A program made the translations under genes and the position numbers. A stretch of DNA of 413 bases from Escherichia coli. GTDB taxonomy: Bacteria > Pseudomonadota > Gammaproteobacteria > Enterobacterales > Enterobacteriaceae. Under the pieces are notes generated by a model. The model saw nothing but the letters and a program-made list of their open reading frames with translations, was not told the origin of the DNA and searched no databases. Positions 182 to 208 of the stretch are shown here, piece after piece. The stretch lies in assembly GCF_003334335.1 (NCBI RefSeq), contig NZ_QOWQ01000193.1, one strand, 5' to 3'. Numbering within the stretch: the first letter of the stretch is position 1; each line of letters starts with the position of its first letter.

Positions 182-208
182 GGCACCAGAAATGGTGCCT
201 TTTTTATT
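182..208 (+). terminator. Rho-independent (intrinsic) terminator downstream of the J-like gene
   Basis: Perfect inverted repeat GGCACCA (182-188) / TGGTGCC (193-199) forming a 7-bp GC-rich stem with a 4-nt GAAA (GNRA-type) loop at 189-192, followed immediately by TTTTTTATT (200-208). This is the canonical hairpin plus U-tract, lying 20 nt after the upstream stop codon. Confidence 0.75.

Follow-up and report, generated by a model that had tools for sequence, protein, structure and literature searches.

A probable intrinsic terminator at the end of gene J in P-EibA-type lambdoid prophages of Escherichia coli

The inverted repeat that lies just past gene J in P-EibA-type lambdoid prophages of Escherichia coli is very probably a canonical, unidirectional Rho-independent terminator of the + strand, one that would stop unmodified RNA polymerase and probably be read through by Q-modified polymerase. 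The hairpin is real and ordinary, and it is annotated as a terminator in a close relative, phage 434. Judged from sequence, its combination of a stable and maintained + strand hairpin, an invariant U-tract, and a nearby stop codon is the full definition of an intrinsic terminator. The original prediction of such a terminator at the 3' end of the upstream message stands on the grounds of anatomy, folding, position past the J stop codon, and covariation. Its description of the terminator as efficient, giving the message a stable 3' end, does not survive as an unconditional claim, since stf lies downstream on the same strand and presumably needs Q-antiterminated read-through. In a prophage family that is very common in E. 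coli, the site would mark where the J transcription unit ends; beyond good annotation, its significance is small.

The window, meaning the whole 413-nucleotide stretch of E. coli DNA that was analyzed, is 100% identical to positions 228-640 of AF151091.1, the P-EibA prophage of E. coli ECOR-9. Among 5,426 complete E. coli genomes, 4,366 carry matching sequence. The window matches 13,879 places in all, the median per genome being 2 and the maximum 13. The J coding sequence of AF151091.1 ends at record position 389, which is window position 162, and RefSeq names the product of this part of the window gpJ phage tail tip protein; the lom product is named 'Ail/Lom family outer membrane beta-barrel protein'. 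J, the hairpin, and lom all lie on one strand (+), the hairpin starting 19 nt past the J stop codon and ending 30 nt before the lom ATG (Table 1). In phage 434, a ribosome binding site is annotated at the place equivalent to the Shine-Dalgarno sequence of the lom leader.

Table 1. Features of the 413-nucleotide window, with the basis on which each was assigned
Feature	Positions	Strand	Basis
3' end of gene J (tail-tip / host-specificity protein), frame 1	1-162	+	stop TGA 160-162
Conserved TTATAACCC box	166-174	+	alignment columns at least 90% identical, 36 distinct variants
Probable terminator hairpin, 8-bp stem and GAAA tetraloop	181-200	+	folding, covariation, phage 434 annotation
Probable terminator U-tract, TTTTTTATT	200-208	+	sequence reading and terminator scan
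lom leader; Shine-Dalgarno GAGAGG at 219-224	209-229	+	read from sequence
5' part of lom, ATG at 230	230-413	+	GenBank lom CDS (AF151091.1 457-1056) starts at window 230

Canonical Rho-independent terminators of E. coli and phage lambda, such as lambda tR', combine a G+C-rich stem, a tetraloop, and a U-tract; those of E. coli were reportedly surveyed by d'Aubenton Carafa et al. in 1990. The hairpin between J and lom is built in the same way, with a G+C-rich stem of 7-8 bp, a tetraloop, and six U followed by AUU, shortly past a stop codon. Nothing structural distinguishes it from the canonical examples; the difference is one of site, inside an operon with antiterminated late transcription.

The core of the hairpin is the stem that had been predicted, seven perfect Watson-Crick pairs of which five are G-C, formed by GGCACCA (182-188) and TGGTGCC (193-199) around a GAAA loop (189-192). 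A G181:U200 wobble forms an eighth pair beyond these seven. The resulting 8-bp stem and 4-nt loop fall within the ranges expected of an intrinsic terminator, about 5-14 bp for the G+C-rich stem and 3-8 nt for the loop. The U-rich tract, expected 0-2 nt past the stem, follows it directly as T200-T205, A206, and T207-T208 (UUUUUUAUU), and the whole element stands downstream of a gene on the transcribed strand. A terminator scan of the window returned this single site, on the + strand (1 found against 0.3 expected). Under a strict definition of the site (a perfect 7-bp stem with at least five G-C pairs, a loop of 3-8, and at least five T in the next eight bases), 27 of 20,000 dinucleotide-shuffled windows had an equivalent, and a chance origin of the hairpin was rejected. 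Read on the minus strand, the stem leads into CGUAUCUGGG and not into a U-run, so the terminator is unidirectional.

The folding calculation proposed with the original prediction, RNAfold on positions 175-210, gave a stable stem at -14.2 kcal/mol (z = -4.23), and none of 200 shuffles was as stable. In a 141-nt context, the hairpin appears in both the MFE and the centroid structures. Pair probabilities were calculated in five transcript contexts (150-208, 100-208, 1-208, 1-413, and 120-260); the seven core pairs have values of 0.93-1.0, with six of them at 0.98 or above, and the G181:U200 wobble has values of 0.79-0.89. A more stable competing fold, named in the original prediction as grounds for giving up the hairpin, did not emerge in any of these contexts, and in the predicted folds the nascent hairpin forms without a dominant competitor.

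The pairing is also maintained among homologues. About 200 loci from viral contigs and annotated phages yielded 36 distinct versions of a 50-nt region, and when the stem is imposed on their alignment, 98.6% of cells are paired. Slid controls, in which the 3' partner is moved by 1-3 columns, reduce pairing to 35-62% of cells. Three pairs change on both sides: pair 5 is G-C in 27 variants and A-U in 6, pair 6 is C-G in 25 and U-A in 10, and pair 7 is A-U in 35 and U-A in 1. Such changes at pairs 5, 6, and 7 occupy 17 cells against 4.6 expected. None of 500 shuffles reached the covariation score, a statistic that overstates significance because the sequences are closely related; the qualitative picture of compensated change and wobble intermediates is nevertheless clear, and the site is a clean case of covariation within a terminator stem. 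All one-sided stem changes give G-U, U-G, or A-U on the + strand, and the wobbles would be A-C mismatches if read on the minus strand. Because the intermediates are valid on the + strand only, they point to a + strand RNA helix and not to a DNA palindrome or a minus-strand RNA, and the alignment indicates that the stem pairing is under selection as such a helix. The columns of the T-run are invariant across the 36 variants. In one viral-contig variant, L157 (GGGCCCA...TGGGCC), both arms are shorter by one base and pairing is intact, a compensated double deletion. Another viral-contig variant, L189, has unrelated sequence upstream of CACCA and is left with a 5-bp stem; it looks like the product of a rearrangement that broke within the 5' arm.

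Canonical Rho-independent terminators commonly have GNRA or UUCG tetraloops, and GNRA loops are frequent in those of E. coli. The loop at 189-192 fits the G-N-R-A pattern. In a nearest-neighbour model, the hairpin with GAAA has a free energy of -13.6 kcal/mol compared with a median of -12.7 kcal/mol over all 256 tetraloops; as the gain is only about 0.9 kcal/mol in this model, nearly all of the stability comes from the stem. GAAA is the loop of 28 of the 36 distinct variants, GGAA of 5, UUUC of 2 (L160 and L196), and CAGG of 1 (Stx1_14040). The UUUC and CAGG variants have intact stems, and their occurrence means that GNRA identity is not conserved among homologues. A search of the window for the classical 11-nt tetraloop receptor, the one receptor type sought, found CCUAAG on neither strand and UAUGG once on the minus strand and not on the + strand. 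The small energetic gain, the existence of non-GNRA loops, and the lack of a + strand receptor motif in the window speak against the original emphasis on a GNRA loop able to mediate tertiary contacts. There is no evidence for selection on GNRA identity or for a tertiary contact by the loop, and GAAA is best described as a common, slightly favourable terminator loop without a demonstrated specific role. In L160 and L196, TTTC, the exact reverse complement of GAAA, replaces it in an unchanged stem; the loop or the palindrome looks inverted, as template switching at a hairpin would be expected to produce.

The closest counterpart is in phage 434 (OL657226.1 18940-18966), where an identical hairpin and U-tract (GGGCACCAGAAATGGTGCCTTTTTTATT) are annotated 'terminator' as a prediction of the depositors. 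The phage 434 site lies between the central tail fibre gene, the J homologue, and the Ail/PagC/OmpX (lom) gene. The two regions share their flanking genes and the lom leader and are about 90% identical overall; they differ in the last J codons and in the spacer before the hairpin.

Lambda itself has a hairpin at the same position (NC_001416 ~18920-18944), unannotated in either lambda record, that reads CGTCCG-GGAA-CGGGCG-TTTTATTAT as DNA and CGUCCG-GGAA-CGGGCG followed by UUUUAUUAU as RNA. Its architecture is the same and its loop, GGAA, is again GNRA, but the stem is unrelated in sequence and shorter (6 bp, one of them G-U). It is also weaker, with a centroid structure at -8.1 kcal/mol, and the 61-nt J-lom spacer of lambda folds no better than shuffled sequence (z -0.5). 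The lambda hairpin may represent an independent solution at the same J-lom place.

More distant parallels are found in HK97 and N15, whose records annotate putative Rho-independent terminators inside the tail-gene clusters. The likeness to these phages and to morons lies in terminator-like hairpins placed between late genes, beside inserted accessory genes. The moron model (PMC3594210) places a terminator downstream of the inserted gene, whereas the J hairpin is the upstream one and stays in phages without lom; in the prophage studied here, lom is flanked by two terminator-like hairpins. HK97 has no terminator-like site after J, so a post-J terminator, though common, is not universal among lambdoid phages, and a proposal of universality was rejected.

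Lambda Q modifies polymerase for late antitermination, and the read-through step proposed here rests on this activity together with gene order. As RNA polymerase transcribes the U-rich tract, the nascent 181-200 hairpin would fold within the RNA exit channel. Melting of the weak rU:dA hybrid would then release the transcript about 40-45 nt past the J stop codon. In a repressed prophage, the terminator would stop polymerase lacking modification by Q, the late antiterminator, thereby keeping stray tail-gene transcription out of lom and stf. During lytic growth, Q-modified polymerase would ignore the terminator and stf and tfa, which lie downstream of the hairpin on the same strand, would still be expressed. 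The lambda late transcript comprises 27 genes under Q antitermination (PMC10695390), and given the downstream location of stf and tfa, Q-modified polymerase would have to read through the site in lytic growth. Thus, the terminator is probably read through in the lytic cycle and stops only unmodified polymerase, whether in a prophage or during spurious transcription.

The literature searched yielded no experimental 3'-end or termination results for the site, and the EHEC Term-seq paper does not mention it. In E. coli K-12 MG1655, the J-lom junction is missing from the Rac prophage (L210, 1427389-1428984), where ynaA, a remnant with a tape-measure domain, overlaps lomR, and lomR is split by IS5. 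As the junction is missing, K-12 transcriptome data are uninformative on the J terminator.

The demands of the lytic transcript also give rise to another explanation, in which the hairpin serves mainly as an RNA-stability element, a 3' protective or processing barrier after endonucleolytic cleavage of the J late mRNA, with little termination. Termination at this site would be counterproductive for a late transcript that must reach stf and tfa, and a stable hairpin with selected pairing fits protection equally well. The invariant U-run past the stem is needed for termination and not for protection from exonucleases, which makes a mainly protective function rather unlikely. The two roles are not exclusive, however. 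Once transcribed, the hairpin of the proposed terminator would shield the end of J-containing RNA against 3' exonucleases, and such 3' protection of processed J mRNA is a plausible second function, compatible with termination.

Comparison with lom-less phages shows to which gene the terminator belongs. In HannyBb, PhiR63_1, and Lambda_2G7a, the hairpin and T-run are retained and stand between J and stf, which makes the hairpin part of the J module and not of lom. Lom-carrying and lom-less phages are homologous as far as TTTTTTATT; directly past it, the three lom-less phages have the stf leader (TTTGTGGAGTGAATATGGCAGTA...) in place of the lom leader, and in lambda the same stf leader comes after a second hairpin and its T-run, downstream of lom. 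The lom cassette, consisting of leader, gene, and its own terminator, is an insertion bounded by the U-tracts of two terminators, as seen at 200-208 in the window and at L001 1160-1197, L003 1113-1140, L085 ~1536-1556, and L087 ~1559-1580 in the loci compared. This layout agrees with the 'moron' picture (PMC3594210). The accessory cassette is inserted exactly past the U-tract of the J terminator, and for phage engineering that places cargo at the J-lom-stf junction, it is useful that two putative intrinsic terminators flank lom.

The expression of lom bears on how complete termination may be. The gene is reported to be expressed in lysogens (PMC7067206; PMC2147009), and PMC2147009 adds that little is known of its promoter. 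A promoter scan found no sigma-70 promoter-like site for lom in window positions 1-413. Given lom expression in lysogens, the gap of only 30 nt between the hairpin and the ATG, and the empty scan, lom transcription may start upstream and cross the hairpin, which a fully efficient terminator would prevent. In the lom start region (209-257), a hairpin is predicted over the Shine-Dalgarno sequence and ATG; the 141-nt context does not fold significantly (z -1.4).

Transcription of lom from upstream could in principle be regulated at the hairpin. If lom transcription in lysogens began at a site such as TATAAC (167-172), the terminator would act as an attenuator in the lom leader and set how much polymerase reaches the gene. 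The -10-like TATAAC is part of the TTATAACCC box, which is at least 90% conserved across the 36 variants despite several different J C-termini and sits amid variable neighbours; within the spacer, variation is greatest at positions 175-180, in the 6-8 nt that separate the box from the hairpin. However, TATAAC is accompanied by neither a -35 element nor the TG of an extended -10, and the promoter scan did not report it. Moreover, the box and hairpin are unchanged in phages that lack lom, and no alternative anti-terminator fold competes with the hairpin. An attenuator in the lom leader is therefore improbable. The fuller proposal, that the box and hairpin together are the regulatory leader of lom (or of stf in lom-less phages), with transcription starting just upstream and attenuation setting the Lom level, is likewise improbable, although, if true, it would identify the long-unknown lom promoter and its control.

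Alternatively, a small regulatory RNA could end at the terminator, as either a derivative of the J 3' UTR or a short Hfq-binding RNA. The A/U-rich stretch, stable hairpin, and long U-tail resemble the 3' ends of Hfq-binding sRNAs, the region is present at up to 13 places per E. coli genome, and multicopy sRNAs with intrinsic terminators at their ends are encoded in prophages of EHEC and EPEC (10.64898/2026.05.13.724894; 10.1101/2025.11.27.690950). Against this, the window contains no promoter detected by the scan and no Rfam match: the best E-values in an Rfam 15 scan of the window were 2.1 and 5, far below gathering scores, and a scan of the wider P-EibA locus (L001 1-1400) gave no hits. The published sRNAs do not correspond to the site either. 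The hairpin was rejected as the terminator of PasB from EPEC, as the published probe sequence does not match, and of HnrS/EcOnc10-12 from EHEC, as HnrS lies upstream of the packaging and head genes and not after J. An sRNA ending here is very improbable. The terminator of 24B_1 was also considered and set aside, since this sRNA is found in another type of phage, downstream of lom.

That the inverted repeat acts as DNA, as a protein-binding palindrome or a recombination site, is scarcely credible: the perfect 7-4-7 repeat, the boundary between lom-carrying and lom-less phages that adjoins it, and the two inverted-loop variants suggestive of cruciform or template-switch events would fit such a role, but the stem intermediates are + strand G-U wobbles that are meaningful for RNA and not for duplex DNA or a symmetric operator, and the adjacent invariant T-run and the position past a stop codon are features of terminators.

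The spacer on the far side of lom, which lies outside the window, has features of its own. The lom-stf spacer of lambda is 64 nt long, without the extended -10 and hairpins found in P-EibA. In P-EibA, the spacer is 151 nt long and drew no Rfam match; at ~1086-1197 of L001 (AF151091.1) it contains a perfect extended -10 (TGTTATAAT), followed by a small hairpin (GTTCATC...GATGAAC) and then by a 13-bp terminator-like hairpin with eight T. Together, these elements could encode an RNA of about 95 nt.
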